A stretch of DNA of 64,000 bases from Ranitomeya imitator (taxonomy: Eukaryota). Positions 21,004-63,403 of the stretch are shown here, in pieces. The notes beneath the pieces are model-generated. The model did not search any database. It saw nothing but the letters and a program-made list of their open reading frames with translations, and had not been told where the DNA came from. The translations under genes were made by a program, and so were the position numbers. The stretch spans positions 30,752,001 to 30,816,000 of the forward strand of contig NC_091283.1 in the NCBI RefSeq assembly GCF_032444005.1, in the 5' to 3' direction. Numbering within the stretch: the stretch's first letter is position 1; each line of letters begins with the position of its first letter.

Positions 21004-23903
21004 ATGGACAGGAGTCATAAAATGGCTGAGCAGATATTAAGCCTCACCCTGGAGATCATCTACCTGCTGACCGGAGAGGTGAGGACTTGTCGTAATTGTC
21101 ATATGATGTGACTCTGGATAAAGATGAGGCGAGAGATGATGAGTGATGTATATCAGTACGTCTCTCTGTACACAGGATTACACAGTCGTGAAGAAATCTG
21201 GTGAACGTGGGACAACCAGCTCCGATCACCAAGCATCAGGAGGATGGAGTGAGATCAGAAGTGCCATCATGGTGCCTCCACCTCCATCACCGATGCATGA
21301 GAGAAGCAACGAGCAGAAGATCGTGGAGATCACCAATAAGATCCTGCAGGTGGTGACCGGAGAGGTGAGCGCTGCCGAGGACGCCGGGACCTTATATAAT
21401 GTGTCTGGGTGATGACGGGACCGTTGTGTTGTCAGGTCCCAATGAGGTATCAGGACGTCACCGTCTATCTCTCCATGGAGGAGTGGGAGTATATGGAAGA
21501 ACACAAGGACCAGTACAAGGACGTCCTGATGGAGGACCCCCAACCCCTAGCAACAACCATTAAAGAGGAGACTGCCCATAAACATAAAGGTGGGCTTGTG
21601 ACTTATTTATTTTATGTTTTTCTCTGTCATCTGCCTCCTTCCGGACTAGTGAGGCAGACTACGCTCTTCTATATTGTATTCTGATGTACGTCAGCCTGAT
21701 GAAGGCCAAAATGAGACTATTTGTCCTCTGTTGAGTTTTCCTGGCACATGTCAGTGTGAATTCAGCTTGATCCGTACATGTTCAGTAACCTTATCCGTGT
21801 TTCTTACAGATGGACCAAGGCACAGTCCCTCACCAGAAAGTTGTCCCTGTCTAGTTTATTGTAAGGAAGGTCCAGGAGAAAATCCAAATGTCCCTCAGGA
21901 TCGACAGGTAGAAGAATCCTTCGACAAGGACATGAAGTGCCACAAGTAGACATCACTGCGTTATACTGTATATCATTTACTGCATCTTTGTTTTAGAACA
22001 ATGACCTGATTATTGTGAAAGTGGAAGAGATGGAGGGAGACGAGGAGTATTACAGAAGTGACGACCTGAAGAGGGAAGAGGAAACTCCGAGTAATGTCAG
22101 CACAGGTGAGTAATAACTGGACAAGAGAGAAGAGCCAACACACAAGCCGACCTGCCTCCCCGTGTAGGGGGGACGCTCAACGCTTCCTGACGGTTGATAT
22201 CAGGGCAGATCGGTATGAAACAGCTTGAAGTTCAATACGTGAGCCTTTTGTTCTCGGGAAAGATCAGCTGACCCCAGATCTGTCTGTCCAAACCTTTCTT
22301 GCCGTCCTCTATCTACTGAGAACCCATGGACCCTCGGCTAAGCCTTTATGAATGACCATATTCATGCTTCCTCATCCCAATTGTTAGCACAGTCTAAATC
22401 TCTGTTCCCAGCAGTGTCGTTCTCTCTTGTACTCGGCTCCGGAGGTCTGATGTCCCCCATTATAAGTTGACGAGATGAATTCTTCCAGACATAGGAGGTT
22501 CTCGCGTGTTCTATATCTTTTGGGTGTACGGAGCGGGATCTGGAAAATCAATTTCTCCATCTTCGGCAGCTACTGACTGTGACATACAGCCAACACCTGC
22601 CCCTAACAGCAATAAACGGAGCTCTGATCTCTGCTATTTAACCATTTTCGTGCCTCTGACAGTAGCATTTCAATGGCCCAGTCATTCCAGCATCCATCAG
22701 CTGAGCCACAGGCCGGGCTTCACTGGAGACCAGTGATTTTTTTTTTTATGCCCTGGAATATTAAAGTATTCCATTATTCCGTACAAGAGATTAAATAATC
22801 ATAAGTTCGAGTCCCATAAGGGCACTACAAAATAACGTAAAACGTAAAAATATATATATAAAAGTTTTAAATCACAAATTGAAAAATAAACATTTGATAG
22901 CATCGCGTCTGTAAAAATCCAATTTATCAAAATACAAAAAATTTAACCCATATGTTTAACTGAACTCCTCCGGGTGGATTTTTAACTGCATCAAAACTTT
23001 CTTGCGGTCACAAATCAGCTTAGAGGAATTTAGTAGAAGCCAGATGTGCGATATAATCACTGCTGTCATAACAATTGTACACGGAAGCTGCAAAAAGATT
23101 GACTTTTTATGAAAATGGCCCATGAATCCAAGATAGGGAGATCTTGGGTTCCCTACTGGGGACATAGACTCCTGATATATGGCATTAGGGTCTTGGTGTC
23201 CATCTACCACCTCTTTTTCTTCCCAGCAGATGTTCCTCTGAGCCTCGGCTGCGGTCCGCTCCCGTCATCTTCAGATTATTCGTCAAACATTAATATCTCA
23301 CCGACTACTTATGGACAGCCGTTTATTACCATAAACTTTCCTTCCCTCATCACCGGCGGCAATCTGCTGTCTGTTCCCACCACGGTCCTACAGCCATCAT
23401 CTGATCAGTCACAGGCTCCACGGCTGCCTCCAAAGGCCAGAGGAGAGAAGAAGCCGAACAACCGCAGAACCGAGGGACGATTTCCTTGTGCGGAATGTGG
23501 AAAAAGTTTTGCGATGAGATCAAACTTCCTGGAACATCTGAAAGTTCACACAGTGGAGAAGCCGCTCTCGTGTACCGTGTGCGGGAAGTGTTTCAAGCGG
23601 AAATCAGATCTCGTCAGACACCAGAAAACTCACACCGGGGAGAAGCCGCACTTGTGCACAGAATGCGGGAAACGTTTCGCCATTAAATCAAACCTCTTTG
23701 CGCATCACAGAATCCACACAGGAGAGCGGCCGTTCCCGTGTTCCGTGTGTGGGAAATGTTTCATCCAGAAGTCAGATCTGGTTGTGCATCAGATCGCTCA
23801 CACAGGGGAGAAGCCGTTCGGTTGTAGAGTGTGCGGGAAATATTTTAACCGGAAAAGAAGTCTTGTCCGACATGAGAGAATCCACATGAGAGATAAGTCA
23901 TAG
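21004..23903 (+). CDS. ZNF gene 2: KRAB-like C2H2 zinc-finger protein, ~433 aa, 5 fingers. Exons 21004-21078, 21176-21364, 21436-21589 (inferred shifted donor), 21810-21907, 21997-22105, 23227-23903
   Basis: Same exon architecture as gene 1. The usual KRAB-exon donor at 21560 is mutated; an in-frame AAG|GTGGGC donor lies 30 nt downstream. NAGNAG acceptor before the finger exon. Confidence 0.82.
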
Positions 23904-29334: not shown

Positions 29335-30788
29335 TTAAGTGATTGTCGGCGTATTTCAGTAGGACGACAGTCGTGAAGCGGGCCTATGAACAATCCTTTC
29401 CCAATAATCGGCCACGATGAGTGAACCTCAAGGCCTGGTTCGCATGTTGGGTATTTGGTGCGGATTTTCCAGCAATCGTAATCTAATCCTTGTGCTACAT
29501 TCTTGTTGGTTTGGAATCCGCTAGGCCCCCGGCCTGTGTCGTGTTTTCTAAGCCCACCACAGGTCAATTTCTGCAGTGAACATGTATCTTTTTACTGCAG
29601 ATTTTACTCATTTCAATTACTTTAAATCCACAGATTAAAACCTTGGTCGGACATTGCTCTGCTCCATCTTTTAAGTCCATTTATGTAAATAAAAACCGAA
29701 AACACATAATGCATGAGTAGTGTATAAGCGGGTGGTTTCGTCAAACTCAATCTGACAGGTGCCCCGCCCCTATCAAAGTGTATCAAAGTGTGTAACCCCT
29801 CCCCTCCCCTTGTTTGACGGCTGGTATCCAGCTGTCCCTCCTTGTTTGATTTCCCCTTTTGATATAGTTTAATATAGTTTAATTTGTTGTAGTTTTGATA
29901 TTATTCCCGTATTTTGTGGAATAACACATGTTTATAATTATAGCCTAGTCGTGTATTTATTTTACACGTGGTTTATAACACCTTTCTCATTTGTTTATAA
30001 TAGATTTTATACGTATCCCCGAGTTTGATTCTGTAAGCTTTTGTTTTATTCACAGTGTATTCATATAGTGGAGAACTTAAAGCTGTTTATATGTGTCTCT
30101 ACTGAACACTATGGTGAACATTAACTAAATGTTTATTTTCCCAAACAGAGAATCTGCTGTGGGTATTTGCAGTGTATTCATATAGTGGAGAACTTAAAGC
30201 TGTCTATTTGTTTTTGTAAATGGTGAACACTAACTAAATGGTGAACATTATCTAAATTAGGTTAACTGCGGTTCAGAGGTTCATAACACCTAGGTCAAGC
30301 AATTGTTGTTGTATTTGCGTACCCCATAAATGTTTATTTCCACAAACAGAAAAGTTATTGTGTCCTGAAGATGGCATCTGAGGTTATTTGTTATCTACTG
30401 AGGCCATTGCAAGCTGTGTTTATTCACATTGTAGCAGGTTTTATCCTTGTGGCTGCCTTATATACACAGAAGAGATATGCACCAATGTCACAACACAAGT
30501 TATAATATGACCCAATGTTACAATACAAGTAAGAAGCGGCGTGTTTTATACGAATAAAAACCAAAGACACGATATTGTAAAAAAAATTTAAAAGATTTAT
30601 TTCTCACGATAAAACAGCATCTCAAAGACATTTCAACACTATAAAAAATTCTTACAGAATATAAAAAGTAAAAACATTACAATACAGTAATATGACAGTA
30701 CAGTAACAGTACAATGATCAATTACACTTCTTACAAAATAATTAATATAGCGTTACAAGGCGTGTACAGCATTTATCCAGTACATTCT

Positions 30789-31559
30789 TTACATCGTGAG
30801 CCACATGGTTTGTAGCAGCGGTAGAGACCTTTTTTTAGGTAGCAAAGTTCCACGTGTGGTACCTAATGACGGGGAATGTAAAGATTGAATTGTACGGGGT
30901 GACGCCGCTAACTTCAGCGGTGTAGATACAGAGCGTGTCTCACTGTTGGTAATTTTTAATTCATCTAAAAGCTTCCTAGTAGCGGGGTTACCCACAACTG
31001 TAGACGGCATATTTAGCTCTGCCATAGCCTGCATAAATGAATCCCAACCCGGCGGTAAATTTCTACTGTTCAGAGCATGACTCTGCGTTGTACTACGTAC
31101 CAAATCCAGTAAGTTAGACCCTGGTATTACGGATCCTTTGAAAATAAATTCAGCATTATTATTCCATGCTGTGACATTTTTATTCTGCAGCAGCCTGTTT
31201 AGTAAAAATTCAGCATTCTTTTTATATCTTTGGTTTATATGGCCGACAATTTCAGCGATCTCATGATTTTTATCAGAGTCGGTATTTGGCAATTGCTGCT
31301 GACCAGGATCAGGAGGGCTAACGAGATTTAAAGCCGTTACTTCTCTTGAGCTGTGCCTCGTATGTACCAAGTAGCGTTGTAGCACAGCGCTATACATTTT
31401 AATTTTCACATCATCGGGAATGTCACGACGCTGTAAAATGTCGCTAATCTCACCATCAAGGCGCCGAATAACACTGTCGCGTATGTTATCTGTAGTACCG
31501 GGTCTTAGTTTGTCTAGCTCCTGTTTGGGGACTAGATACATTTTCGTTGTATGCTCCAT
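30789..31559 (-). CDS. Maverick/Polinton conserved accessory protein, 256 aa (left-arm copy)
   Basis: MEHTTKMYLVP..RLDGEISDILQR..DDVKIKMYSAVLQRYL and WNNNAEFIFKGSVIPGSNLLDLV..PPGWDSF..LNMPSTVVGN match my recollection of a conserved Polinton ORF. Not database-verified. Confidence 0.75.
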   Translation of the reverse strand: MEHTTKMYLVPKQELDKLRPGTTDNIRDSVIRRLDGEISDILQRRDIPDDVKIKMYSAVLQRYLVHTRHSSREVTALNLVSPPDPGQQQLPNTDSDKNHEIAEIVGHINQRYKKNAEFLLNRLLQNKNVTAWNNNAEFIFKGSVIPGSNLLDLVRSTTQSHALNSRNLPPGWDSFMQAMAELNMPSTVVGNPATRKLLDELKITNSETRSVSTPLKLAASPRTIQSLHSPSLGTTRGTLLPKKRSLPLLQTMWLTM

Positions 31560-31693
31560 TATCTTCCGGCGATCAGGCTTGTTATTATTGGGATTGCAAA
31601 AGCTAAAAGAGGACCGATAAACCCGCCGGCCTGTTTTAGTAGGCGCTTCTTTTTCTTTATGGGCTGAGACCTGTCGCCAGTGATTTTTGCACT
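31559..31693 (-). pseudogene. Same truncated small-protein remnant (left arm)
   Basis: Mirror of 41659-41793. Confidence 0.7.
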
Positions 31694-32564
31694 TTATTAA
31701 CATACAACACACAAGAAATAGACATTTAGAACTTATTTATGATTAATATGCGATTATTAGGCATTTAGGACTTATGTTATCATGTTTTTGCACTTTATTA
31801 ATATGCGGTTATTAGTCATTTAGGACTTATGTTATCATGTTTTTGCACTTTATTAATATGCTGACCACATAGGTCAGGGATTTTTTGTACTTTATTAATA
31901 TGCGGGCCACAAACACTTCTGCACCCACGGGCGCTTCTCAACCAACCATGCATCCGGTACTCATCAGGCACTGTGAAATAATGCAAAAATACATCTGTGC
32001 GCGGCTGTCGGCATCAACATTGTGCTATTATAAGTTTATGGTTCTGTAAAGAACACGCAACACATACAGAACTCACACACACACACAAATACACACAGCA
32101 CACAACACGCACACATTTCTCAAAATGCCATACACTTCAGAATATATTTGCAATTCACTACGCATGTAACACATATTTCTTCGCCCCACACGCATTTAAC
32201 AGTCTTTCATATGTATCGCAGAAAGATTTTAGTTCCAACTGCGGGTCAGCGGCTTAAAGAAAAGTTATTGTGGCCTTGATTCTGGGGTAACACATGTTTA
32301 TAAATATAGCCTAGTCGTGTATTTATTTTACACATGGTTTATAACACATTTCATGGCCTTGATTCTGGGGTAACACATGTTTATAAATATAGCCTAGTCG
32401 TGTATTTATTTTACACATGGTTTATAACACATTTCATTTGTTTTTGTTGTTTGATTGTCATGTAAGAAGCGTTGTGTTTTATACGAATATAAAAGTGACA
32501 CATTCCCATATATTATTACAGCTTTCATTAATTCTACATTATTTTAGCACATATTAATTTTACA

Positions 32565-32739
32565 CTATTAATTTTACAGGAGCCTGTGCTGCCTATAATT
32601 TGACTCCTTTTTATACAAAGACATCTAACATATACAGACTTTTAATATTTTTGTGTAAAATCGCGGTCAGACAGGCACAAACACACACACACACACACAC
32701 ACGCACACAACACAGAACCACACACAACAAACACACAGA

Positions 32740-32773
<34 letters not shown>

Positions 32774-33786
32774 GAAATAGACATTTAGGACTTATTTATG
32801 TTATTATCTTTATGCACTTTGAATGTGCTGTCTATAATTTGACTCTATCCTTGTTTTGTTGAAAATAACTGGACATACATAAGAAACCGGGCAATATATC
32901 TTTATAGAAATAACACTTCTGCACTCTTTGTGTATTTCTATCAGTTTTATTCAGGCATTTATAACACAACATGTTTGATATTGGTAATTTGATTCTGGGA
33001 ACACATTTTAAGTTACTGCTGCACATGTATTACTGTTTTTCTTGTTTTTTGTGTAAAATTTCGTTGTTGGTTTACAAAGACATTTCTTTGAGAAATGTGT
33101 AGCATAACCAATTACCCATCACGGCCACTAGATGGCAGAATATCATATTAATTATTCTGGGATAACATTTCTCTTTGTGCCTATTAATTTTACAGGAGCC
33201 TGTGCTGCCTATAATTTGACTCCTTTTTATACAAAGACATCTAACATATACAGACTTTTAATATTTTTGTGTAAAATCGCGGTCAGACAGGCACAAACAC
33301 ACACACACACACACACGCACACAACACAGAACCACACACAACAAACACACAGAACCCACACACACACACACACACACAAGAAATAGACATTTAGGACTTA
33401 TTTATGTTATTATCTTTATGCACTTTGAATGTGCTGTCTATAATTTGACTCTATCCTTGTTTTGTTGAAAATAACTGGACATACATAAGAAACCGGGCAA
33501 TATATCTTTATAGAAATAACACTTCTGCACTCTTTGTGTATTTCTATCAGTTTTATTCAGGCATTTATAACACAACATGTTTGATATTGGTAATTTGATT
33601 CTGGGAACACATTTTAAGTTACTGCTGCACATGTATTACTGTTTTTCTTGTTTTTTGTGTAAAATTTCGTTGTTGGCTTACAAAGACATTTCTTTGAGAA
33701 ATGTGTAGCATAACCAATTACCCATCACGGCCACTAGATGGCAGAATATCATATTAATTATTCTGGGATAACATTTCTCTTTGGGC
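32565..33786. repeat. Tandem duplication (616 + 606 bp) with CA microsatellites, left arm; mirrored at 39566-40787
   Basis: CTATTAATTTTACAGGAGCC at 32565 and 33181; duplicated ORFs offset by 606. Confidence 0.92.
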
Positions 33787-34349
33787 ATTTCTATCAGTTT
33801 TATTTATGCTTTTATAACACAACATGTCTGCTATTGTTAATTTGATTCGGGGATAACACATGTTTATAAAAATAACGCTATAGCAAGCGGTAATGTCAAA
33901 TTCTGAAAATAGCCATTTTATATTGAATTACTAACATTTTTCTATTTTAGCGCTGACACAGCCACATATATTATTCCAGCTTTCTTTAATTCTGCATTAT
34001 TTTATCACATGATGAAAATAGTCATTTTATATTGAATTACTGCAGCTCGCGGCGCGTTACCACTGGTCTCGTTTCTCAATTAATTTCCCAGCTGACGACG
34101 CTATCTATAATTCTGCGTATACCTTAGGCGTGTATTTACATGACAGTGTAATTATTTCTCACAATAAAACAACAGCTCAAATTTTAAGTTAGCTAACAGC
34201 ATAATGATGACAAATGCATCTTTGCGGAATCTGATAACGACACGCTGAACAAAGGACGGAGCCTGACAAATACACACAACACACAACACGCACATATTAT
34301 GAAAAATGACAACCATTGTATGTGATTTAAAAAACTTTAGTTAGATTTA

Positions 34350-36095
34350 TCAGGGGTGATTTAGTTTGAAAGCACGCAGCTCCTCGGTAATGTCATGTGT
34401 TGGACACGCATTTAACAGTCTTTCATATGTATCGCAGAAAGATTTTAGTTCCATCTGTGCGAGTTTGCTTTGAGCGTACTGCGCAGACATGTCAGTAAAC
34501 ATTTTGACATGGTCAGCATCCCACGAAGGACGACCTGTGTAAGGTGTATGTACAGCAACTTTCTGCTTTCTACCTACACGGCGTCGGGATACGGTTCGTT
34601 TCTTTAGAGGTAATACAGGGGCAAAAACGCTAGAAAAGTCTGCAAGAGCAGTATCTGCAGATTGCACAGTCTGGCACACAGGTATATTGAGGGGCTCTGT
34701 GGGTGACCACAGACCCTCGGAGAGCTGCTCAATTTCTCTGTTTTCAGGCGTAACTTGGGGTATGGCGCCTGTGCTATTGGCGGGCCGTGTTATGCGGGGC
34801 CGAGCGTTCGGCGCTGCACGTTTCTCTCTTGAAACGTTCGTATATTTCTGATGTGAAATCTTGGGGCTTGGATTCCCGGGTTGTTTTGGTGCAGCGTAGC
34901 ATTCATCACGATCCACAACACAGATGGGCGAGAGAGATGTTGTTCGCACCGCCGTATTAGCTCTTTGTGGTTGATTCTCTTCAGTGTCGTAATTACGCCA
35001 GTGCAAAACTCGTTGTTGAAGAGGCGACGTATCTAAAAGAAAAGATACAAGTGGCGGTTAGCCGCGAAACGGCGCAAAATTGGAAAAGCTAAACGGCGAC
35101 GCATAGCTATGATCATACGTAATATTTGAAAAGTTAATGGGGACAGGTAGCCATGAAATCATTGTAACAATATTTACATAAACCTGTATAGAGCAGTCCA
35201 GATATATACTTACAAGTATGAAGCGGGAATTGTCCCACATCAGCTCCTGGTTTAACGGGAGGCGCAATGCTCAAACTCGCAGAGGCGGGAATATTCTCTT
35301 TTTCAAGCTGTATTTTCCGGGCAACTAGATTAGCGGGTGTAAGTAAAAATATAACGATTAGCGAACACAGAATTGATTTTCTACACAAAACTGCAGCGGT
35401 GAGAAGAATATATATATATTCAAAAATGAATTTTCTGACAGTTAGCTAGCAGCTGTAAGTAAATATGAGTATTACACAAAAGTGAGAATCGACTGTATTT
35501 CAAGTGAACAGATACCTTTTCTATTCTTGAAACATCGGTGTAACGAGTTGCCGCGTCTTTTAGGCGCATCGGGTTTCGCTGAAGTTGCAGGGTTCTTGAC
35601 ATCTATGATCTCCACGTCTGAACCCAGCGTATCGCGTGGTTCGGGAACACACCAGTTTTCAGCCATAGCGTCAGATGTCTCCGTGTCAGTATCTGTATGA
35701 GAAATTGCGCGTAGTTCGTGTTTACATACAAAGGATTAAAGCAACTGATATAGTATAATATAGTTTTACGGTATAAACATATTTGCGGTGTAAATTAATA
35801 TAGCAAGACTTATGCCGCTATATATTAATAATTCAGTATTATATTGACGGCTACCGCTATTATTTGTTTTATTAATTTAATCATATATTTATTATGCCAT
35901 AATTTGTGTAATACAATAGTTAATAGATGCTATAGTTTTACGCCATAAACAGTATATATTAACATAGATAATATATATATATATATATATATTTAGCTTT
36001 CTTACATGTGATACATGAAAGATAAATATCTTTGTACCGTGTTACAATGACATTTTTCCCTATCTAAAAGCAAAAAGGTGCTCCTAATTACCCAT
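34350..36095 (-). CDS. Mirror copy of the three-exon 287-aa gene. Exons 36092-36095, 35516-35692, 34350-35032
   Basis: Exact reverse complement of the right-arm model. Confidence 0.65.
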
Positions 36096-36309
36096 GATGA
36101 GATGAAGAGCAGGCCCATTATCGGCTATCGGCGCCACGGCTTCAATGCGCGCATAATTCTGCGTTATGAAATTATTGCGCCAATCGGGCGACATACACGG
36201 CTCTTAAATAAGAAAGAATGCATGAATATATAATTAATATAATTTACTTATAATATAATGACACAATCAGAATGAGTCAATACTCTGTACATTATACGCG
36301 TATAATACC

Positions 36310-37042
36310 TAATTGTGTGCTTGCAAGAAGGGGGCTGCATTGCTCGCGAGGGTATTGGGCGTCCATCTTAAATAAATAGGGGATAAGTTTTATCTATAAC
36401 TGCGCCGCCAATAAATACAGTTTAAAACTACGTTACAAAAATATGCTTTACAGGCATTGATAATATTAGACCGCAAATAAAACAGTAAACACCTACTTTT
36501 CAGAGAGTAGCGCAACTGTTCAGAGAGAAATTACCACCCACCGTGAACACACCTACAGGAAACCGCATTATACGCCACCCGTGACTAATTGCGCGCACAT
36601 GTCAGATAACAATGGTTGTTATGACTCAGCCATAAGCCTTTCTATATTAATTATGTCCCACAAATATTGCTTATACAGTAAAAACTATATTATACATCGC
36701 TACTAAATATGCAGTTAGCTGCCAGTATAACACTAACTTATTAAACAAATAACATCCTTAATTATGGTTTAGAGATGCATAGTTAAATATAATTATGCAT
36801 TTGCGAATAATAACACAACTGTCTTATATACTTACATTTAGAATAGCTCTGCTTTTTATCCTAGTCGGACTTCTGGTGGATGTCTGTTGTACTGTAGTGG
36901 GACAGTCAGCTGTATTTATCCTGAGTGTCAGAAAGCAACTCAGGTGTTAACACCCAGAAACACACCCAGTTACGCCACATCACACGCCTTCTGTTAACAC
37001 CCAGAACACAGTCATACATGCAATTAATGCATGTATTAACTC
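36310..37042. other. Unique 733-bp central spacer of the palindrome
   Basis: Not self-complementary; no ORF of 60 aa or more; contains TGTTAACACCCAGAA twice and near-palindrome TTAATGCATGTATTAA (37024-37039). Confidence 0.9.
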
Positions 37043-37256
37043 GGTATTATACGCGTATAATGTACAGAGTATTGACTCATTCTGATTGTGTCATTATATT
37101 ATAAGTAAATTATATTAATTATATATTCATGCATTCTTTCTTATTTAAGAGCCGTGTATGTCGCCCGATTGGCGCAATAATTTCATAACGCAGAATTATG
37201 CGCGCATTGAAGCCGTGGCGCCGATAGCCGATAATGGGCCTGCTCTTCATCTCATC

Positions 37257-39002
37257 ATGGGTAATTAGGAGCACCTTTTTGCTTTTAGATAGGGAAAAAT
37301 GTCATTGTAACACGGTACAAAGATATTTATCTTTCATGTATCACATGTAAGAAAGCTAAATATATATATATATATATATATTATCTATGTTAATATATAC
37401 TGTTTATGGCGTAAAACTATAGCATCTATTAACTATTGTATTACACAAATTATGGCATAATAAATATATGATTAAATTAATAAAACAAATAATAGCGGTA
37501 GCCGTCAATATAATACTGAATTATTAATATATAGCGGCATAAGTCTTGCTATATTAATTTACACCGCAAATATGTTTATACCGTAAAACTATATTATACT
37601 ATATCAGTTGCTTTAATCCTTTGTATGTAAACACGAACTACGCGCAATTTCTCATACAGATACTGACACGGAGACATCTGACGCTATGGCTGAAAACTGG
37701 TGTGTTCCCGAACCACGCGATACGCTGGGTTCAGACGTGGAGATCATAGATGTCAAGAACCCTGCAACTTCAGCGAAACCCGATGCGCCTAAAAGACGCG
37801 GCAACTCGTTACACCGATGTTTCAAGAATAGAAAAGGTATCTGTTCACTTGAAATACAGTCGATTCTCACTTTTGTGTAATACTCATATTTACTTACAGC
37901 TGCTAGCTAACTGTCAGAAAATTCATTTTTGAATATATATATATTCTTCTCACCGCTGCAGTTTTGTGTAGAAAATCAATTCTGTGTTCGCTAATCGTTA
38001 TATTTTTACTTACACCCGCTAATCTAGTTGCCCGGAAAATACAGCTTGAAAAAGAGAATATTCCCGCCTCTGCGAGTTTGAGCATTGCGCCTCCCGTTAA
38101 ACCAGGAGCTGATGTGGGACAATTCCCGCTTCATACTTGTAAGTATATATCTGGACTGCTCTATACAGGTTTATGTAAATATTGTTACAATGATTTCATG
38201 GCTACCTGTCCCCATTAACTTTTCAAATATTACGTATGATCATAGCTATGCGTCGCCGTTTAGCTTTTCCAATTTTGCGCCGTTTCGCGGCTAACCGCCA
38301 CTTGTATCTTTTCTTTTAGATACGTCGCCTCTTCAACAACGAGTTTTGCACTGGCGTAATTACGACACTGAAGAGAATCAACCACAAAGAGCTAATACGG
38401 CGGTGCGAACAACATCTCTCTCGCCCATCTGTGTTGTGGATCGTGATGAATGCTACGCTGCACCAAAACAACCCGGGAATCCAAGCCCCAAGATTTCACA
38501 TCAGAAATATACGAACGTTTCAAGAGAGAAACGTGCAGCGCCGAACGCTCGGCCCCGCATAACACGGCCCGCCAATAGCACAGGCGCCATACCCCAAGTT
38601 ACGCCTGAAAACAGAGAAATTGAGCAGCTCTCCGAGGGTCTGTGGTCACCCACAGAGCCCCTCAATATACCTGTGTGCCAGACTGTGCAATCTGCAGATA
38701 CTGCTCTTGCAGACTTTTCTAGCGTTTTTGCCCCTGTATTACCTCTAAAGAAACGAACCGTATCCCGACGCCGTGTAGGTAGAAAGCAGAAAGTTGCTGT
38801 ACATACACCTTACACAGGTCGTCCTTCGTGGGATGCTGACCATGTCAAAATGTTTACTGACATGTCTGCGCAGTACGCTCAAAGCAAACTCGCACAGATG
38901 GAACTAAAATCTTTCTGCGATACATATGAAAGACTGTTAAATGCGTGTCCAACACATGACATTACCGAGGAGCTGCGTGCTTTCAAACTAAATCACCCCT
39001 GA
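37257..39002 (+). CDS. Predicted three-exon gene of unknown function, 287 aa. Exons 37257-37260, 37660-37836, 38320-39002
   Basis: ATCATGG|GTAATT, CATACAG|AT, AAAG|GTATCT and CTAAC..(Y)n..TTAG|AT. Both introns are phase 1 and join the 64-aa and 218-aa ORFs in frame (864 nt). Exons 2-3 are better supported than the 4-nt first coding exon. Confidence 0.65.
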
Positions 39003-40578
39003 TAAATCTAACTAAAGTTTTTTAAATCACATACAATGGTTGTCATTTTTCATAATATGTGCGTGTTGTGTGTTGTGTGTATTTGTCAGGCTCCGTCCTT
39101 TGTTCAGCGTGTCGTTATCAGATTCCGCAAAGATGCATTTGTCATCATTATGCTGTTAGCTAACTTAAAATTTGAGCTGTTGTTTTATTGTGAGAAATAA
39201 TTACACTGTCATGTAAATACACGCCTAAGGTATACGCAGAATTATAGATAGCGTCGTCAGCTGGGAAATTAATTGAGAAACGAGACCAGTGGTAACGCGC
39301 CGCGAGCTGCAGTAATTCAATATAAAATGACTATTTTCATCATGTGATAAAATAATGCAGAATTAAAGAAAGCTGGAATAATATATGTGGCTGTGTCAGC
39401 GCTAAAATAGAAAAATGTTAGTAATTCAATATAAAATGGCTATTTTCAGAATTTGACATTACCGCTTGCTATAGCGTTATTTTTATAAACATGTGTTATC
39501 CCCGAATCAAATTAACAATAGCAGACATGTTGTGTTATAAAAGCATAAATAAAACTGATAGAAATGCCCAAAGAGAAATGTTATCCCAGAATAATTAATA
39601 TGATATTCTGCCATCTAGTGGCCGTGATGGGTAATTGGTTATGCTACACATTTCTCAAAGAAATGTCTTTGTAAGCCAACAACGAAATTTTACACAAAAA
39701 ACAAGAAAAACAGTAATACATGTGCAGCAGTAACTTAAAATGTGTTCCCAGAATCAAATTACCAATATCAAACATGTTGTGTTATAAATGCCTGAATAAA
39801 ACTGATAGAAATACACAAAGAGTGCAGAAGTGTTATTTCTATAAAGATATATTGCCCGGTTTCTTATGTATGTCCAGTTATTTTCAACAAAACAAGGATA
39901 GAGTCAAATTATAGACAGCACATTCAAAGTGCATAAAGATAATAACATAAATAAGTCCTAAATGTCTATTTCTTGTGTGTGTGTGTGTGTGTGTGGGTTC
40001 TGTGTGTTTGTTGTGTGTGGTTCTGTGTTGTGTGCGTGTGTGTGTGTGTGTGTGTTTGTGCCTGTCTGACCGCGATTTTACACAAAAATATTAAAAGTCT
40101 GTATATGTTAGATGTCTTTGTATAAAAAGGAGTCAAATTATAGGCAGCACAGGCTCCTGTAAAATTAATAGGCACAAAGAGAAATGTTATCCCAGAATAA
40201 TTAATATGATATTCTGCCATCTAGTGGCCGTGATGGGTAATTGGTTATGCTACACATTTCTCAAAGAAATGTCTTTGTAAACCAACAACGAAATTTTACA
40301 CAAAAAACAAGAAAAACAGTAATACATGTGCAGCAGTAACTTAAAATGTGTTCCCAGAATCAAATTACCAATATCAAACATGTTGTGTTATAAATGCCTG
40401 AATAAAACTGATAGAAATACACAAAGAGTGCAGAAGTGTTATTTCTATAAAGATATATTGCCCGGTTTCTTATGTATGTCCAGTTATTTTCAACAAAACA
40501 AGGATAGAGTCAAATTATAGACAGCACATTCAAAGTGCATAAAGATAATAACATAAATAAGTCCTAAATGTCTATTTC

Positions 40579-40612
<34 letters not shown>

Positions 40613-41658
40613 TCTGTGTGTTTGTTGTGTGTGGTTCTGTGTTGTGTGCGTGTGTGTGTGTGTGTGTGTGTTTGTGCCTGTCTGACCGCGATTTTACACA
40701 AAAATATTAAAAGTCTGTATATGTTAGATGTCTTTGTATAAAAAGGAGTCAAATTATAGGCAGCACAGGCTCCTGTAAAATTAATAGTGTAAAATTAATA
40801 TGTGCTAAAATAATGTAGAATTAATGAAAGCTGTAATAATATATGGGAATGTGTCACTTTTATATTCGTATAAAACACAACGCTTCTTACATGACAATCA
40901 AACAACAAAAACAAATGAAATGTGTTATAAACCATGTGTAAAATAAATACACGACTAGGCTATATTTATAAACATGTGTTACCCCAGAATCAAGGCCATG
41001 AAATGTGTTATAAACCATGTGTAAAATAAATACACGACTAGGCTATATTTATAAACATGTGTTACCCCAGAATCAAGGCCACAATAACTTTTCTTTAAGC
41101 CGCTGACCCGCAGTTGGAACTAAAATCTTTCTGCGATACATATGAAAGACTGTTAAATGCGTGTGGGGCGAAGAAATATGTGTTACATGCGTAGTGAATT
41201 GCAAATATATTCTGAAGTGTATGGCATTTTGAGAAATGTGTGCGTGTTGTGTGCTGTGTGTATTTGTGTGTGTGTGTGAGTTCTGTATGTGTTGCGTGTT
41301 CTTTACAGAACCATAAACTTATAATAGCACAATGTTGATGCCGACAGCCGCGCACAGATGTATTTTTGCATTATTTCACAGTGCCTGATGAGTACCGGAT
41401 GCATGGTTGGTTGAGAAGCGCCCGTGGGTGCAGAAGTGTTTGTGGCCCGCATATTAATAAAGTACAAAAAATCCCTGACCTATGTGGTCAGCATATTAAT
41501 AAAGTGCAAAAACATGATAACATAAGTCCTAAATGACTAATAACCGCATATTAATAAAGTGCAAAAACATGATAACATAAGTCCTAAATGCCTAATAATC
41601 GCATATTAATCATAAATAAGTTCTAAATGTCTATTTCTTGTGTGTTGTATGTTAATAA

Positions 41659-41793
41659 AGTGCAAAAATCACTGGCGACAGGTCTCAGCCCATAAAGAAA
41701 AAGAAGCGCCTACTAAAACAGGCCGGCGGGTTTATCGGTCCTCTTTTAGCTTTTGCAATCCCAATAATAACAAGCCTGATCGCCGGAAGATAA
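41659..41793 (+). pseudogene. 5'-truncated remnant of a Maverick small basic protein ending in a GGF-amphipathic helix (right arm)
   Basis: A frame not listed in the ORF track reads SAKITGDRSQPIKKKKRLLKQAGGFIGPLLAFAIPIITSLIAGR*. Its TAA overlaps the next ATG (TAATG). Confidence 0.7.
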
Positions 41794-42563
41794 TGGAGCA
41801 TACAACGAAAATGTATCTAGTCCCCAAACAGGAGCTAGACAAACTAAGACCCGGTACTACAGATAACATACGCGACAGTGTTATTCGGCGCCTTGATGGT
41901 GAGATTAGCGACATTTTACAGCGTCGTGACATTCCCGATGATGTGAAAATTAAAATGTATAGCGCTGTGCTACAACGCTACTTGGTACATACGAGGCACA
42001 GCTCAAGAGAAGTAACGGCTTTAAATCTCGTTAGCCCTCCTGATCCTGGTCAGCAGCAATTGCCAAATACCGACTCTGATAAAAATCATGAGATCGCTGA
42101 AATTGTCGGCCATATAAACCAAAGATATAAAAAGAATGCTGAATTTTTACTAAACAGGCTGCTGCAGAATAAAAATGTCACAGCATGGAATAATAATGCT
42201 GAATTTATTTTCAAAGGATCCGTAATACCAGGGTCTAACTTACTGGATTTGGTACGTAGTACAACGCAGAGTCATGCTCTGAACAGTAGAAATTTACCGC
42301 CGGGTTGGGATTCATTTATGCAGGCTATGGCAGAGCTAAATATGCCGTCTACAGTTGTGGGTAACCCCGCTACTAGGAAGCTTTTAGATGAATTAAAAAT
42401 TACCAACAGTGAGACACGCTCTGTATCTACACCGCTGAAGTTAGCGGCGTCACCCCGTACAATTCAATCTTTACATTCCCCGTCATTAGGTACCACACGT
42501 GGAACTTTGCTACCTAAAAAAAGGTCTCTACCGCTGCTACAAACCATGTGGCTCACGATGTAA
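41793..42563 (+). CDS. Maverick/Polinton conserved accessory protein, 256 aa (right-arm copy)
   Basis: Identical to the left copy. ATG in good Kozak context (ATAATGG); AATAAA downstream at ~42750. Confidence 0.75.
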   Translation: MEHTTKMYLVPKQELDKLRPGTTDNIRDSVIRRLDGEISDILQRRDIPDDVKIKMYSAVLQRYLVHTRHSSREVTALNLVSPPDPGQQQLPNTDSDKNHEIAEIVGHINQRYKKNAEFLLNRLLQNKNVTAWNNNAEFIFKGSVIPGSNLLDLVRSTTQSHALNSRNLPPGWDSFMQAMAELNMPSTVVGNPATRKLLDELKITNSETRSVSTPLKLAASPRTIQSLHSPSLGTTRGTLLPKKRSLPLLQTMWLTM

Positions 42564-43933
42564 AGAATGTACTGGATAAATGCTGTACACGCCTTGTAAC
42601 GCTATATTAATTATTTTGTAAGAAGTGTAATTGATCATTGTACTGTTACTGTACTGTCATATTACTGTATTGTAATGTTTTTACTTTTTATATTCTGTAA
42701 GAATTTTTTATAGTGTTGAAATGTCTTTGAGATGCTGTTTTATCGTGAGAAATAAATCTTTTAAATTTTTTTTACAATATCGTGTCTTTGGTTTTTATTC
42801 GTATAAAACACGCCGCTTCTTACTTGTATTGTAACATTGGGTCATATTATAACTTGTGTTGTGACATTGGTGCATATCTCTTCTGTGTATATAAGGCAGC
42901 CACAAGGATAAAACCTGCTACAATGTGAATAAACACAGCTTGCAATGGCCTCAGTAGATAACAAATAACCTCAGATGCCATCTTCAGGACACAATAACTT
43001 TTCTGTTTGTGGAAATAAACATTTATGGGGTACGCAAATACAACAACAATTGCTTGACCTAGGTGTTATGAACCTCTGAACCGCAGTTAACCTAATTTAG
43101 ATAATGTTCACCATTTAGTTAGTGTTCACCATTTACAAAAACAAATAGACAGCTTTAAGTTCTCCACTATATGAATACACTGCAAATACCCACAGCAGAT
43201 TCTCTGTTTGGGAAAATAAACATTTAGTTAATGTTCACCATAGTGTTCAGTAGAGACACATATAAACAGCTTTAAGTTCTCCACTATATGAATACACTGT
43301 GAATAAAACAAAAGCTTACAGAATCAAACTCGGGGATACGTATAAAATCTATTATAAACAAATGAGAAAGGTGTTATAAACCACGTGTAAAATAAATACA
43401 CGACTAGGCTATAATTATAAACATGTGTTATTCCACAAAATACGGGAATAATATCAAAACTACAACAAATTAAACTATATTAAACTATATCAAAAGGGGA
43501 AATCAAACAAGGAGGGACAGCTGGATACCAGCCGTCAAACAAGGGGAGGGGAGGGGTTACACACTTTGATACACTTTGATAGGGGCGGGGCACCTGTCAG
43601 ATTGAGTTTGACGAAACCACCCGCTTATACACTACTTGCATGAATAGAAGCAGAAAATAAACTCGGATTTTAGATGCAGAAACTTTGCAGACTGCAGTTG
43701 AGAAATCAATGCATGTTCACGTGATGTGTTCCTGATGGGGTTTTGCGCTGACATTTTGCAAAAATTAAGTGAATTCACCTGATTTTACCACGTTTGGGTA
43801 AACATCAAATTCCGCATCAGGAACATATCATGTGAACAATGTCGAAAACTGCATCAAATACACAAATGTCCTGAATGCAGGTTTAGCTTGGAGAGTTCAG
43901 CTCTGAAGCCTGAGGTCATGTTCCAACATAGTA

Positions 43934-46311: not shown

Positions 46312-46532
46312 ACTCCTCCGTGGTGGATGTGAGAGTGTATGTGTACACTGTACACGGTGTGTATATATATGTAATTACAATGGGGGAAATAAGTATTTGA
46401 TCCCTTGCTGATTTTGTAAGTTTGCCCACTGACAAAGACACGAACAGTCTATAATTTTAAGGATAGGTTAATTTTAACATTGAGAGATAGAATATCAAAA
46501 ATAAAATCCAGAAAATCACATTGTATAAATTA

Positions 46533-47282
<750 letters not shown>

Positions 47283-50904: not shown

Positions 50905-53900
50905 ATGGACACGAGTCCCAAGAGTCCCAACAAGACTGTGCAGATCCTAGACCTGACCCTGGAGATCATCTACCTGCTGACCGGAGAGGTGAGGACCCGT
51001 GAGTCCTAACAATGGAGGCCGCATGATCAGAAATCTTTCAAACTTTCAGAAATGTATATAGTAGAGTTGAGCAGAAACATTGTTCTTCCCCGGTTCTGCG
51101 TCCAGTGCAGCCCTCCGAGGCGGACAGACCTGTGTTGTGTTCTCTCCTGGCATTGACTAGGCCCCGCGATGTCACGATGTGGCGGTGCTAGTAAATGCCC
51201 AGGACGCCGTCTGAGAAGGGAACACTGCCTTGGACTGGACACCGGATGAGATCAGCACCTGCTCATCTCTAGTATTTTCGTCTCAGCTGCAGTTTCATAC
51301 ATCCACCATTTGGGGCGCTATATTATGACCTTTACTAGGCTGAATTATAGTTATTCGGGACAAGTAATATATACAAATTTTCATATGCAAATTGGTAACT
51401 TATTTTCATAAATTATCAACCTAAAAGGGGTTGTGCTGTAAATTGGATGGGATTCGGCCATTCAAGTCTATTAATGCAAGAGAAAAATCGGTTGCCATAC
51501 AGAGCCACAATCTAGCGATCAATTCTTACGGATACATTGCAGTTCTGTAACATAGGGAACTGTAAATGATCTTGTAGGAGATTAATAGCTGCTGCTGTAA
51601 AAATACAGTTTGTACACGGATGACAAGTGAGAAAATAAATCGTCACACTTTTCTGGATGAAGAAAGTTAGAGGCACTCACCAGTGTCCATACCCAGTGTC
51701 TATAAAAAGATTGTTTGTTTGTTTTTTAAATTTCAAATCTTCCTTGAAACCATCTCTGTGGCAGAGGGAGCGGAGTGAGAGCGGCAGAGGGAGCGGAGAG
51801 AGAGCGGCAGAGGGAGTAGAGAGAGCGGCAGAGGGAGCATGGTGAGAGAGCGGCAGAGGGAGCGGAGAGAGAGCGGCAGAGGGAGCGGAGAGAGAGCGGC
51901 AGAGGGAGCGGAGTGAGAGCGGCAGAGGGAGCGGAGTGAGAGTGGCAGAGGGAGCGGAGTGAGAGTGGCAGAGGGAGCATGGTGAGAGTGGCAGAGGGAG
52001 CGGAGTGAGAGTGGCAGAGGGAGCATGGTGAGAGTGGCAGAGGGAGCATGGTGAGAGTGGCAGAGGGAGCGGAGTGAGAGCGCAGAGGGAGCATGGTGAG
52101 AGTGGCAGAGGGAGCTGAGAGAGAGTGGCAGAGGGAGCATGGTGAGAGTGGCAGAGGGAGCATGGTGAGAGTGGCAGAGGGAGCATGGTGAGAGTGGCAG
52201 AGGGAGCATGGTGAGAGCGGCAGAGGGAGCATGGTGAGAGTGGCAGAGGGAGCGGAGTGAGAGCGCAGAGGGAGCGGAGTGAGCGGCAGAGGGAGCGGAG
52301 TGAGAGTGGCAGAGAGAGCAGAGAGAGCGGCAGAGGGAGCATGGTGAGAGTGGCAGAGGGAGCGGAGAGAGAGCAGCAGAGGGAGCATGGTGAGAGTGGC
52401 AGAGGGAGCATGGTGAGTGGCAGAGGGAGCATGGTGAGAGCGGCAGAGGGAGCATGGTGAGAGTGGCAGAGGGAGCATGGTGAGAGTGGCAGAGGGAGCG
52501 GAGAGAGAGCGGCAGAGGGAGCATGGTGAGAGCGGCAGAGGGAGCATGGTGAGAGCGGCAGAGGGAGCATGGTGAGAGTGGCAGAGGGAGCGGAGAGAGA
52601 GCGGCAGAGGGAGCATGGTGAGAGTGGCAGAGGGAGCGGAGTGAGAGTGGCAGAGGGAGCGGAGTGAGAGTGGCAGAGGGAGCATGGTGAGAGTGGCAGA
52701 GGGAGCATGGTGAGAGTGGCAGAGGGAGCATGGTGAGAGTGGCAGAGGGAGCGGAGTGAGAGTGGCAGAGGGAGCGGAGTGAGAGTGGCAGAGGGAGCAT
52801 GGTGAGAGTGGCAGAGGGAGCGGAGTGAGAGTGGCAGAGGGAGCGGAGTGAGAGTGGCAGAGGGAGCATGGTGAGAGTGGCAGAGGGAGCATGGTGAGAG
52901 TGGCAGAGGGAGCATGGTGAGAGTGGCAGAGGGAGCATGGTGAGAGTGGCAGAGGGAGCGGAGTGAGAGTGGCAGAGGGAGCGGAGTGAGAGTGGCAGAG
53001 GGAGCATGGTGAGAGTGGCAGAGGGAGCGGAGTGAGAGCGCAGAGGGAGCGGAGTGAGCGGCAGAGGGAGCGGAGTGAGAGTGGCAGAGAGAGCAGAGAG
53101 AGCGGCAGAGGGAGCATGGTGAGAGTGGCAGAGGGAGCGGAGAGAGAGCAGCAGAGGGAGCATGGCGAGAGTGGCAGAGGGAGCATGGTGAGAGTGGCAG
53201 AGGGAGCATGGTGAGTGGCAGAGGGAGCATGGTGAGAGCGGCAGAGGGAGCATGGTGAGAGTGGCAGAGGGAGCATGGTGAGAGTGGCAGAGGGAGCATG
53301 GTGAGAGTGGCAGAGGGAGCATGGTGAGAGTGGCAGAGGGAGCGGAGTGAGAGTGGCAGAGGGAGCGGAGTGAGAGTGGCAGAGGGAGCGGAGTGAGAGT
53401 GGCAGAGGGAGCGGAGTGAGAGTGGCAGAGGGAGCATGGTGAGAGTGGCAGAGGGAGCATGGTGAGAGTGGCAGAGGGAGCATGGTGAGAGTGGCAGAGG
53501 GAGCATGGTGAGAGTGGCAGAGGGAGCATGGTGAGAGTGGCAGAGGGAGCGGAGTGAGAGTGGCAGAGGGAGCATGGTGAGAGTGGCAGAGGGAGCGGAG
53601 TGGGAGTGGCAGAGGGAGCGGAGTGAGAGTGGCAGAGGGAGCATGGTGAGAGTGGCAGAGGGAGCATGGTGAGAGTGGCAGAGGGAGCATGGTGAGAGTG
53701 GCAGAGGGAGCATGGTGAGAGTGGCAGAGGGAGCGGAGTGAGAGTGGCAGAGGGAGCGGAGTGAGATTGGCAGAGGGAGCGGAGTGAGATTGGCAGAGGG
53801 AGCATGGTGAGAGTGGCAGAGGGAGCATGGTGAGAGTGGCAGAGGGAGCATGGTGAGAGTGGCAGAGGGAGCATGGTGAGAGTGGCAGAGGGAGCGGAGT

Positions 53901-56900
53901 GAGAGTGGCAGAGGGAGCGGAGTGAGAGTGGCAGAGGGAGCGGAGTGAGAGTGGCAGAGGGAGCGGAGTGAGAGTGGCAGAGGGAGCGGAGTGAGAGTGG
54001 CAGAGGGAGCATGGTGAGAGTGGCAGAGGGAGCATGGTGAGAGTGGCAGAGGGAGCATGGTGAGAGTGGCAGAGGGAGCATGGTGAGAGTGGCAGAGGGA
54101 GCATGGTGAGAGTGGCAGAGGGAGCATGGTGAGAGTGGCAGAGGGAGCATGGTGAGAGTGGCAGAGGGAGCATGGTGAGAGTGGCAGAGGGAGCATGGTG
54201 AGAGTGGCAGAGGGAGCGGAGTGAGAGCGCAGAGGGAGCATGGTGAGAGCGGCAGAGGGAGTGGAGTGAGAGCGGCAGAGGGAGTGGAGTGAGAGCGGCA
54301 GAGGGAGCATGGTGAGAGTGGCAGAGGGAGCATGGTGAGAGTGGCAGAGGGAGCATGGTGAGAGTGGCAGAGGGAGCATGGTGAGAGTGGCAGAGGGAGC
54401 ATGGTGAGAGTGGCAGAGGGAGCGGAGTGAGAGCGCAGAGGGAGCATGGTGAGAGCGGCAGAGGGAGTGGAGTGAGAGCGGCAGAGGGAGCGGAGTGAGA
54501 GCGGCAGAGGGAGCATGGTGAGAGCGGCAGAGGGAGCATGGTGAGAGCGGCAGAGGGAGTGGAGTGAGAGCGGCAGAGGGAGCATGGTGAGAGCGGCAGA
54601 GGGAGCATGGTGAGAGTGGCAGAGGGAGCGGAGAGAGAGCGCAGAGGGAGCATGGTGAGAGTGGCAGAGGGAGCATGGTGAGAGTGGCAGAGGGAGCGGA
54701 GTGAGTGGTAGAGGAAGCGGAGTGAGAGTGGCAGAGGGAGCGGAGTGAGAGTGGCAGAGGGAGCATGGTGAGAGTGGCAGAGGGAGCATGGTGAGAGTGG
54801 CAGAGGGAGCGGAGAGAGAGCGGCAGAGGGAGCATGGTGAGAGCGGCAGAGGGAGCATGGTGAGAGTGGCAGAGGGAGCATGGTGAGAGTGGCAGAGGGA
54901 GCATGGTGAGAGTGGCAGAGGGAGCATGGTGAGAGTGGCAGAGGGAGCATGGTGAGAGTGGCAGAGGGAGCGGAGTGAGAGCGCAGAGGGAGCATGGTGA
55001 GAGCGGCAGAGGGAGCGGAGTGAGAGCGGCAGAGGGAGTGGAGTGAGAGCGGCAGAGGGAGCATGGTGAGAGCGGCAGAGGGAGCATGGTGAGAGCGGCA
55101 GAGGGAGCATGGTGAGAGCGGCAGAGGGAGCATGGTGAGAGTGGCAGAGGGAGCATGGTGAGAGTGGCAGAGGGAGCGGAGTGAGAGCGGCAGAGGGAGT
55201 GGAGTGAGAGCGGCAGAGGGAGTGGAGTGAGAGCGGCAGAGGGAGTGGAGTGAGAGCGGCAGAGGGAGCATGGTGAGAGTGGCAGAGGGAGCGGAGAGAG
55301 AGCGCAGAGGGAGCATGGTGAGAGTGGCAGAGGGAGCGGAGTGAGAGCGGCAGAGGGAGCGGAGTGAGAGTGGCAGAGGGAGCGGAGAGAACGGCAGAGG
55401 GAGCATGGTGAGAGTGGCAGAGGGAGCAGAGTGAGAGCGGCAGAGGGAGCGGAGTGAGAGTGGCAGAGGGAGCGGAGAGAGCGGCAGAGGGAGCGGAGTG
55501 AGAGCGGCAGAGGAAGCTGGGCGAGAGCAGCAGAGGAAGCGGAGAGAGAGCGGCAGAGGAAGCTGGGCGAGAGCAGCAGAGGAAGCTGGGCAAGAGCGGC
55601 AGAGGGAGTGGAGAGAGATCGGCAGAGGGAGCATGGTGAGAGCGGCAGGTGCAGCAGAGCAGACGCAGGCCATTTTGTGCTGGACTGCGCTTCAACGGGT
55701 CTCCTCGCTCCCTCTGCCACAGAGATGGTTTGAAAGAAGATTTTAAAGTAAAAAAAACAACTTTTTTTGGACATTTGTGAGTGTCGCTAACTTTTTTCGT
55801 CACTGGACACAGTACACAAGCAGGGATTGTCTAAGAAACCGGCAATGTGTATGCGTTGTGGCTGTCGCCGTGAGACGTGCAGGCACGGAGACTCAAACAT
55901 ATTATTCGAGCACACCGAAGTCACTTGGTTAGCACCCGAGCATGCTCAGATAACACCTTATCCCAGCACGTTTGTTCATCACTAGTAACTTCACATCTAA
56001 AAAAAAAATTGTATTTTTGTGGGGCTGCAGTCAAGTGTGAATAGAATAGTGAGGATGTTGTAGTTTAGTCGTTGGTGGAAGATTTAAGGCAGACTGAAGG
56101 CTCCCATACACATTAGACTAAAGTCCTCAGTGAGATCATCAGACAGCATTGTGTTGGGGCCTCCCGACTGTCGGGGAAGAGAAGGCTTGGGCCAGTTGAA
56201 TTTCAGCGGCCGATCCTTTTGTTCTCCGAGAGGTAAACCACCGCTAGAGGAGTGTGACAGCGGACCTCTCATAGAGAACACAGGCGCGATCGGCTGAATC
56301 TAGCGTTCCTGTGTATGTGGGAGACAGGTGAGATGGCAGATATCTAATGTGTATGGAGGCCTTAAGGACTTGGCCGAGCGTTCCCATGTCACTTATAAGA
56401 CAGCCCCTGTGGCTTGTCACGGCCAGATCCTTTTCTGTCGCTAGGCCCCAATACACATTAGATGGTCGGCCAATCCCAGATAACTTTTATCTAATAGGAA
56501 GGTTTCAATCTACCCTGCCGCAGAGAGAAAACATCATCGATGTTGGCAAATCATCATATCTGCATGAATTCAGACTCATTATGGTAAAGTTCTCCTGGAA
56601 ACTGAGAGAATGTTCATCTCTATGGATGGAGTCAGGGCCAGAGATGATGAGAGTCATGTTCATCTGTGCGTTTCCGTATACACAGGATTATATAATAGTG
56701 AAGAAGTCCGATAAGTGTGAGACATCCAGCTCCGATCACTCAGCATCAAGACAATGGAGCAAGATCAGAAGCGCCATCATGGGTCATGCGCCGATACATG
56801 AGAAGAGCAAGGAGCAGAAGATCATAGAGATCACCAATAAGATCCTGCAGATGTTGACTGAAGAGGTGAGCGCTGGCGGGAACGCGGGGACATAATGCAG

Positions 56901-61442: not shown

Positions 61443-63403
<1,961 letters not shown>

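Follow-up and report, generated by a model that had tools for sequence, protein, structure and literature searches.

A spliced gene of five exons, encoding a protein of 379 aa, lies in the arm and spacer DNA of a palindromic element in the poison frog Ranitomeya imitator; it was detected within a window of 64,000 nt, the whole stretch of DNA analysed, to which all positions refer. Judged by its termini and its remaining genes, the element is Maverick-derived and non-autonomous, and not an intact Maverick; an intron-bearing cargo gene is carried on this vertebrate Maverick derivative. Our reading of the whole, held with moderate confidence, is that the five-exon gene rides on a palindrome, non-autonomous and derived from a single end of a poison-frog Maverick, and that its product is a disordered nuclear accessory regulator.

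Gene structure and splicing

The NCBI R. imitator protein P0001 (379 aa, annotated as uncharacterized) maps onto five exons in the window (Table 1), with 100% identity at exons 1, 2 and 5 by tblastn and with exon-3 and exon-4 residues equal to the window translations. A preliminary description of this DNA had proposed a hidden gene of three exons and 287 aa starting at ATG 37257. The gene is not hidden, its protein being annotated already, and the three-exon model needs correction: ATG 37257 is Met56 of a longer frame, whose exon begins upstream of it and is preceded by a 58-nt coding exon on the minus strand, and the 287-aa form equals P0001 56-379 minus a 37-aa exon.

Table 1. Positions of the element, its repeats and the mapped coding features in the window
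Feature	Position	Strand	Remarks
Whole element	29716..43636		13,921 nt; AGTAGT...ACTACT termini
Target-site duplication TGCATG, left	29710..29715		read in sequence
Target-site duplication TGCATG, right	43637..43642		read in sequence
Left arm	29716..36309	-	6594 nt, identical to right arm
Right arm	37043..43636	+	6594 nt, perfect inverted repeat
Central spacer, unique DNA	36310..37042		733 nt; holds exon 1 on minus strand
Exon 1, coding	36309..36366	-	58 nt; P0001 residues 1-19; tblastn 19/19; 36315/37148 joint
Left-arm exon 2	36092..36202	-	P0001 tblastn mapping
Left-arm exon 3	35516..35692	-	P0001 mapping
Left-arm exon 4	35214..35324	-	P0001 mapping
Left-arm exon 5, to stop	34350..35032	-	P0001 tblastn mapping
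Right-arm exon 2	37150..37260	+	111 nt; joint to 37660 in X1, X5, X9
Right-arm exon 3	37660..37836	+	177 nt
Right-arm exon 4	38028..38138	+	111 nt; joints 37836/38028, 38138/38320
Right-arm exon 5	38320..39002	+	last exon, 100% to P0001
NLS-like basic stretch	38748-38792	+	residues 296-310
Helix-turn-helix	about 38835-38993	+	residues 325-377; predicted structure
Short duplicate of exon-5 codons 345-362	41111..41164	+	17/18 identical
Maverick pm 3' remnant	41665..41793	+	5' part absent; mirror 31559-31687
Maverick pz ORF	41793..42563	+	intact, 256 aa; mirror 30789-31559

Contigs from four (X1, X5, X9 and X11) of 16 listed public runs, presumed to derive from RNA, were compared with positions 36315-43700; they sample a multi-copy family, so that close copies or either arm could be their source, and 15 of the 35 joints were listed. 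The joint 37260/37660, predicted in the preliminary description, was detected in three of the four runs (X1, X5 and X9) and was absent in X11. The joint 38138/38320 (181 nt) was found in the same three, and 37836/38028 (191 nt) in X1, while X5 has loose ends at the two borders of the latter intron. The joint 36315/37148, seen on the opposite strand in X1 and X5, corresponds to exon 1 spliced into the left arm. All four introns are thereby represented in contigs, three as GT..AG skips and one as the opposite-strand joint, while the X11 contigs contain no joints and run through the introns. Three independent GT..AG joints in contigs of three studies, together with the 100% identity to an annotated protein, lie beyond chance, and an intact spliced gene, as had been claimed, is confirmed.

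The splice signals first described were read in the sequence: ATG G|GTAATT at 37257-37260 and the acceptor CATACAG|37660 across a 399-nt intron, and the donor AAG|GTATCT at 37836 with CTAAC at 38291-38295, a pyrimidine tract and TTTTAG|38320 at a spacing of 483 nt. Their phases are compatible (4+177+683 = 864 nt, 287 codons and a stop), and every signal is mirrored in the left arm. The joint 37836/38320 itself was absent among the 15 of 35 joints listed, and exon 4 lies inside the supposed 483-nt intron.

Exon 2 contains two in-frame ATGs, 37158 in weak and 37257 in strong context. Each of exons 2-4 has a length divisible by three and is in phase 1, and exon skipping therefore keeps the frame. 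Among the 22 R. imitator models listed, six start in a recognisable exon 1, three at Met23, four at Met56, seven at Met66 and two elsewhere. Models P0011, P0043 and P0054, from three genera, end in nearly the same short tail, which follows a donor lying within the gene and suggests a shared downstream exon or repeat; no such exon for the P0011/P0043 tail was seen in the window among the matches listed.

The palindromic element and its Maverick gene content

The ends of the element agree with those of vertebrate Mavericks, for which (AGT)2//(ACT)2 or (AG)3//(CT)3 termini and a 6-bp duplication are described (PMC8097293): it carries (AGT)2//(ACT)2 termini, TGCATG on both flanks and terminal inverted repeats. 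The repeats are the complete arms, without a single difference over 6594 nt.

The spacer includes, at 36586-36744, a diverged copy (66-83%) of the intron between exons 2 and 3 in right-arm orientation (66-73% to 37435-37599), perhaps the remnant of an older paralogue; a profile search of the spacer plus strand detected no second copy of the gene's exons. An Rfam scan of 36250-43700 gave no matches. Between the gene and the pm remnant, a direct duplication of ~630 nt, 97% identical, occupies 39570-40790, and an 83-nt tandem pair occupies 40915-41081; together with the short exon-5 fragment (Table 1) they are a rearranged deletion junction. One X11 contig (1173 nt) fits 36745-37042, while its other 872 letters are absent from the listed pieces (627 more were unlisted); exactly at the arm boundary 37042, therefore, a related element may have a different continuation.

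Relatives of the 256-aa ORF were detected in eight metagenome loci, among them L006, which encodes a type B polymerase, an A32-like ATPase, an integrase and an adenain. The ORF shares 35.5% identity over 211 aa with the L006 ORF placed after polB-ATPase-pm, and the pm remnant shares 55% over 42 aa with the last 42 aa of the L006 pm product. Because its counterpart follows ATPase and PM in L006, and the Maverick gene order is atp-pm-pz (PMC8097293), the ORF is assigned to PZ; PW was considered and rejected on the same order. The R. variabilis model P0038 has an N-terminal part resembling ATPase and then PM, in a by-eye comparison with L006, followed by the same pz ORF. For PZ, no related locus was found in viral contigs (0 of 78).

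Only PM and PZ, two of the ten L006 ORFs compared, match the window, in agreement with the earlier view of a Maverick that has lost its replication and virion genes. From the eight-core-gene set (polB, atp, pm, pz, int, mcp, pw, Mcp, pro), pz is kept and pm survives as its 3' end, the others being absent. Each arm is thus a single Maverick end without the polymerase, the ATPase and the whole second module. The element is unable to copy itself using genes of its own.

Asymmetry of the two arms

The centre had been proposed to act as a symmetric bidirectional promoter for both gene copies. This is unsupported, because the spacer is unique DNA, exon 1 is present on the left side only, where it feeds the left arm, and the mirrored donor of the right arm is preceded, two codons upstream, by an in-frame stop. 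The perfect identity of the arms starts with the final base of exon 1, and the donor G|GTATTA is thus found in both arms; among the 15 of 35 joints listed, none uses the mirrored right-arm donor. The left arm would make the full protein from a spacer promoter, while the right arm could give only N-terminally shortened forms (357, 324 or 314 aa), started from the spacer or from host exons. The 314-aa protein P0013 matches P0001 66-379 without a difference. The chance of a break falling within 3 nt of any of eight junctions is roughly estimated at 0.003-0.009. Selection for a working right donor or a splice-linked origin may account for the break at the exon-1 donor.

Properties of the protein

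Residues 1-319 of P0001 are predicted to be unstructured (pLDDT under 50), and the C-terminal 61 aa form two predicted helices (pLDDT 86.8) with 13 invariant columns in 11 aligned rows. A bipartite basic pattern was detected in 44 of 48 proteins. The basic NLS-like stretch and the likely helical C-terminus given in the preliminary description are supported, the latter by prediction.

The best-kept short block is in exon 4, [RK][KN][ILV]x[FL]xKENxP, present in 43 of 48 proteins (counts inflated by near-copies) and reading RKIQL-E-KEN-I-P in the window, with KEN at 38051-38059. KEN occurs in 43 of 50 proteins from all three genera, and the seven without it are without that part of exon 4. In comparison with three distant relatives, residues 116-128 are identical at 18/39 positions and the rest of exon 4 at 13/67 (Fisher p 0.007, rows non-independent). 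The conserved KEN is located, as in degrons, in a region of predicted disorder (pLDDT under 50); when one protein was shuffled, a KEN by itself turned up in 6-13% of the shuffles. It is flanked by P at +2 and by E, A or S at -1. The RKxxF block next to KEN resembles a cyclin or PP1 docking motif; the strict RVxF form was found in 8 of 50 proteins and is lost in the window copy.

No family had been recognised for this protein earlier, and the searches agree. Pfam gave no families for P0001, P0004 and P0007 and none for all 12 members of alignment A3, and the A3 profile search of PDB sequences gave no matches. The ESM Atlas, queried with P0001 310-379 and P0042, returned no usable match, a result uninformative on absence or novelty. 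The fold search of the C-terminal model retrieved generic helical hairpins (best Z 6.0, rmsd 2.4 over 57 residues) and no viral fold match at E 0.001. The 379-aa product is likely a disordered nuclear regulatory protein belonging to the accessory gene set of the element. That it is a nuclear, motif-driven regulator timed by APC/C is suggested more tentatively, from the motifs.

Relatives, copies and their distribution

An HMM scan of 1.84 billion representatives gave nine matches and a profile search gave 16. All relatives come from four dendrobatoid species, R. imitator, R. variabilis, Anomaloglossus baeobatrachus and Phyllobates terribilis; neither search detected any outside the dendrobatoids. 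The clusters comprise 23 and 7 members from R. imitator, 8 from A. baeobatrachus and 4 from P. terribilis. The conservation anticipated among amphibian relatives was borne out in part, the frame and some splice points being kept in other frogs. The gene was found in none of 158 candidate metagenome loci and in none of the eight Maverick loci fetched. The X11 contigs differ from the window by 9/553 and 14/823 letters.

A tree of 16 of the 50 proteins shows two lineages with 100/100 support, with a long-branch warning: one unites Ranitomeya and an Anomaloglossus group, the other Phyllobates and a different Anomaloglossus protein. Such a topology would suit a gene riding several element lineages and also old host paralogues, and the two lineages in Anomaloglossus fit old paralogy as well as horizontal transfer.

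Origin of the element and alternative explanations

The gene is upstream of pm-pz on the same strand, polB is absent, and PM-PZ points outward. In Rhinella marina the core modules likewise point outward, and accessory regions seem to be missing there, according to the vertebrate survey (PMC8097293); adintovirus Oncoid accessory genes are typically upstream of PolB (PMC8502044). We propose that the parent Maverick had this gene upstream of a polB-ATPase-PM-PZ module, with modules pointing outward as in Rhinella, and that polB and ATPase were lost by deletion. Copy-back or fold-back would then have duplicated this end as a mirror image, breaking at the exon-1 donor, and the resulting satellite, its two ends identical, would rely on intact Mavericks. 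In adenovirus, terminal repeats are known to be copied by fold-back. The 0/6594 differences between arms, against the 1-3% found between copies, would be explained if one arm is rewritten from the other at every transposition or fold-back. The basic stretch would carry the protein into the nucleus, and RKxxF and KEN-x-P would dock it on cell-cycle regulators, as an APC/C substrate or decoy; the C-terminal helices would bind a partner, and expression or copying of the element would be helped in dividing cells.

In the main rival reading, the gene is instead a young dendrobatoid orphan gene of the host, captured with its introns by a Maverick and amplified as passive cargo. We regard this as somewhat unlikely. 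Its four spliceosomal introns, where intact vertebrate Maverick genes have none, and the restriction of all matches to dendrobatoids fit a captured orphan, for which the nematode wasp and krma genes are a precedent (bioRxiv 2022.07.12.499685). Against it, each of the four species has the gene in multiple copies, Anomaloglossus contains both lineages, and the matches include no named or clearly single-copy host form. CpG is also undepleted in the gene body (o/e 1.20, where 57 overlapping host windows reach at most 0.95), which argues weakly away from long-resident host DNA; this is not a general Maverick mark, since the fetched Maverick loci have values of 0.43-1.02.

An extended version of the Maverick reading is bolder, and we hold it unlikely to be right in full: poison-frog Mavericks would have evolved a spliced, E1A-like cell-cycle regulator, a giant palindromic satellite would keep and amplify it, and the break at the exon-1 donor would have left one full and one decapitated copy and created an orientation-independent gene trap that caught a CYP2D-like gene, one of a class implicated in alkaloid metabolism.

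It is quite improbable that the protein no longer matters and that the palindrome spreads by its ends, the frames being intact because the copies are young. Near-identical copies are frequent (seven other models of 379 or 314 aa were compared with P0001, and six share 97-100% identity with it and one 89%), many models are truncated or chimeric, and the 16 listed exon variants (10 non-synonymous and 6 synonymous, a biased subset) give no clear selection signal. However, the motif and the C-terminus are conserved across genera at an overall identity of ~30-40%, the same C-terminus is reached by 20 of the 22 R. imitator models listed, and the gene and PZ were kept while the rest was lost.

The model first proposed, in which a symmetric bidirectional promoter drives one and the same three-exon, 287-aa product in the two arms, is very improbable and largely refuted as the main form: ATG 37257, with its strong context, is indeed the start of 4 of the 22 R. 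imitator models listed, and exon 4 is skipped, in frame, in four other models (P0007, P0010, P0041 and P0051), but exon 4 is present in all 22 R. imitator models listed (of 30 members in two clusters) and in contigs of three of four runs, and exon 1 exists on one side only. An assembly artefact, in which a one-armed defective Maverick was rendered as a palindrome with 0 differences over 6594 nt, is scarcely credible, as the flanks differ, the 6-bp duplication is present on both sides, the junction of spacer and right arm is crossed by an X9 contig (36784-37117), and on the other side contigs of X1 and X5 link spacer and arm.

Comparison with known systems

The Maverick-derived element shares with vertebrate Mavericks its ends, the 6-bp duplication, pm followed by pz and an outward module as in Rhinella marina, and its size of 13.9 kb is inside their range of 12.7-24.6 kb (PMC8097293). 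It differs in its inverted repeats (6594 nt versus 46-1447 nt), in the absence of six of eight core genes with pm truncated, and in a gene with four introns, where intact vertebrate Maverick genes are reported to be intronless (PMC8097293). Vertebrate Mavericks have thus been described as compact, intronless and short-repeat, and surveys relied on polymerase and integrase, both of which are absent here. The accessible text of an Anolis survey reports no non-autonomous Maverick copies (PMC3014272), and that of a review on Polintons mentions no such form (PMC6431247). Titles and abstract starts in the literature, with few subscription papers or repeat databases among the sources, gave no description of the gene or of a palindromic vertebrate Maverick.

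What is already known is the protein, as an uncharacterized annotation, and spliced Maverick cargo in nematodes, where wasp and krma are likewise spliced, lineage-restricted genes between Maverick ends (bioRxiv 2022.07.12.499685). Here, in contrast, the host is a vertebrate, the carrier is a non-autonomous palindrome, and the disordered protein has no enzyme or ubiquitin-like domain.

Adintovirus Oncoid genes are likewise of a motif-rich regulator type upstream of the polymerase module (PMC8502044), a position proposed here from the gene order that is left. Membership among the Oncoids, which are defined by LxCxE, CR1 and CxxC (PMC8502044), was rejected on motifs: LxCxE occurs in 0, CR1 in 1 and CxxC in 1 of 50 proteins, and none in six representatives. 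PxDLS was found in none of 48 proteins. The E1A protein of adenovirus is spliced and disordered, with a C-terminal NLS; it is an analogy only, with no sequence similarity to P0001. KEN-box substrates or decoys of APC/C such as Acm1 share the KEN in a disordered region and a downstream proline (PMC3690534), whereas the frog protein has no homology to them, lacks the D/N at -1 of the consensus and has its P at +2, where the consensus allows +3 or +2 (PMC3690534), a partial fit.

A vertebrate Maverick derivative would thus spread without polymerase and integrase and with a spliced gene, its splicing being read from close copies. The finding accounts for a block of uncharacterized multi-copy frog annotations and provides a candidate, open to testing, for the way in which Mavericks act on the cell cycle of the host. 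In a repeat-rich genome, the element may also give rise to truncated host transcripts, including at one CYP2D-like locus.

Host transcripts and genomic neighbourhood

P0016 (XP_069593147.1) and P0039 (XP_069593149.1) are NCBI models of one R. imitator locus in which a P450 is joined to the gene at the exon-3 or exon-4 acceptor. Their ~173 N-terminal residues are cytochrome P450 (PF00067, E 1e-29), with CYP2D6 as the best solved match (E 2e-46, versus 8e-31 for the next subfamily), and in the NCBI models the locus reads as a gene-trapped CYP2D-like gene. A CYP2D6-like gene, not necessarily the trapped one, has been linked to pumiliotoxin metabolism (PMC8916643). The exon-3 acceptor is used by foreign exons in P0016 and in the Anomaloglossus model P0049, which has a foreign start there. 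In an X5 contig, the 102 letters before the exon-3 acceptor (37658) have no match in 36315-43700, which is how a foreign exon would look. Host transcripts that run into the element, from whichever side, would encounter sense acceptors in its far arm, and intronic copies in either orientation would trap host transcripts.

Three C2H2 zinc-finger genes are located on the plus strand (12468-15354, 21021-23903 and 50940-58843), and the element sits between the coding exons of the second and the third. ORFs at 46530-47282 and 61661-62821 are presumably Tc1/mariner transposases, by the way they read. A 23-bp satellite (51758-55648) is contained in the third zinc-finger gene.
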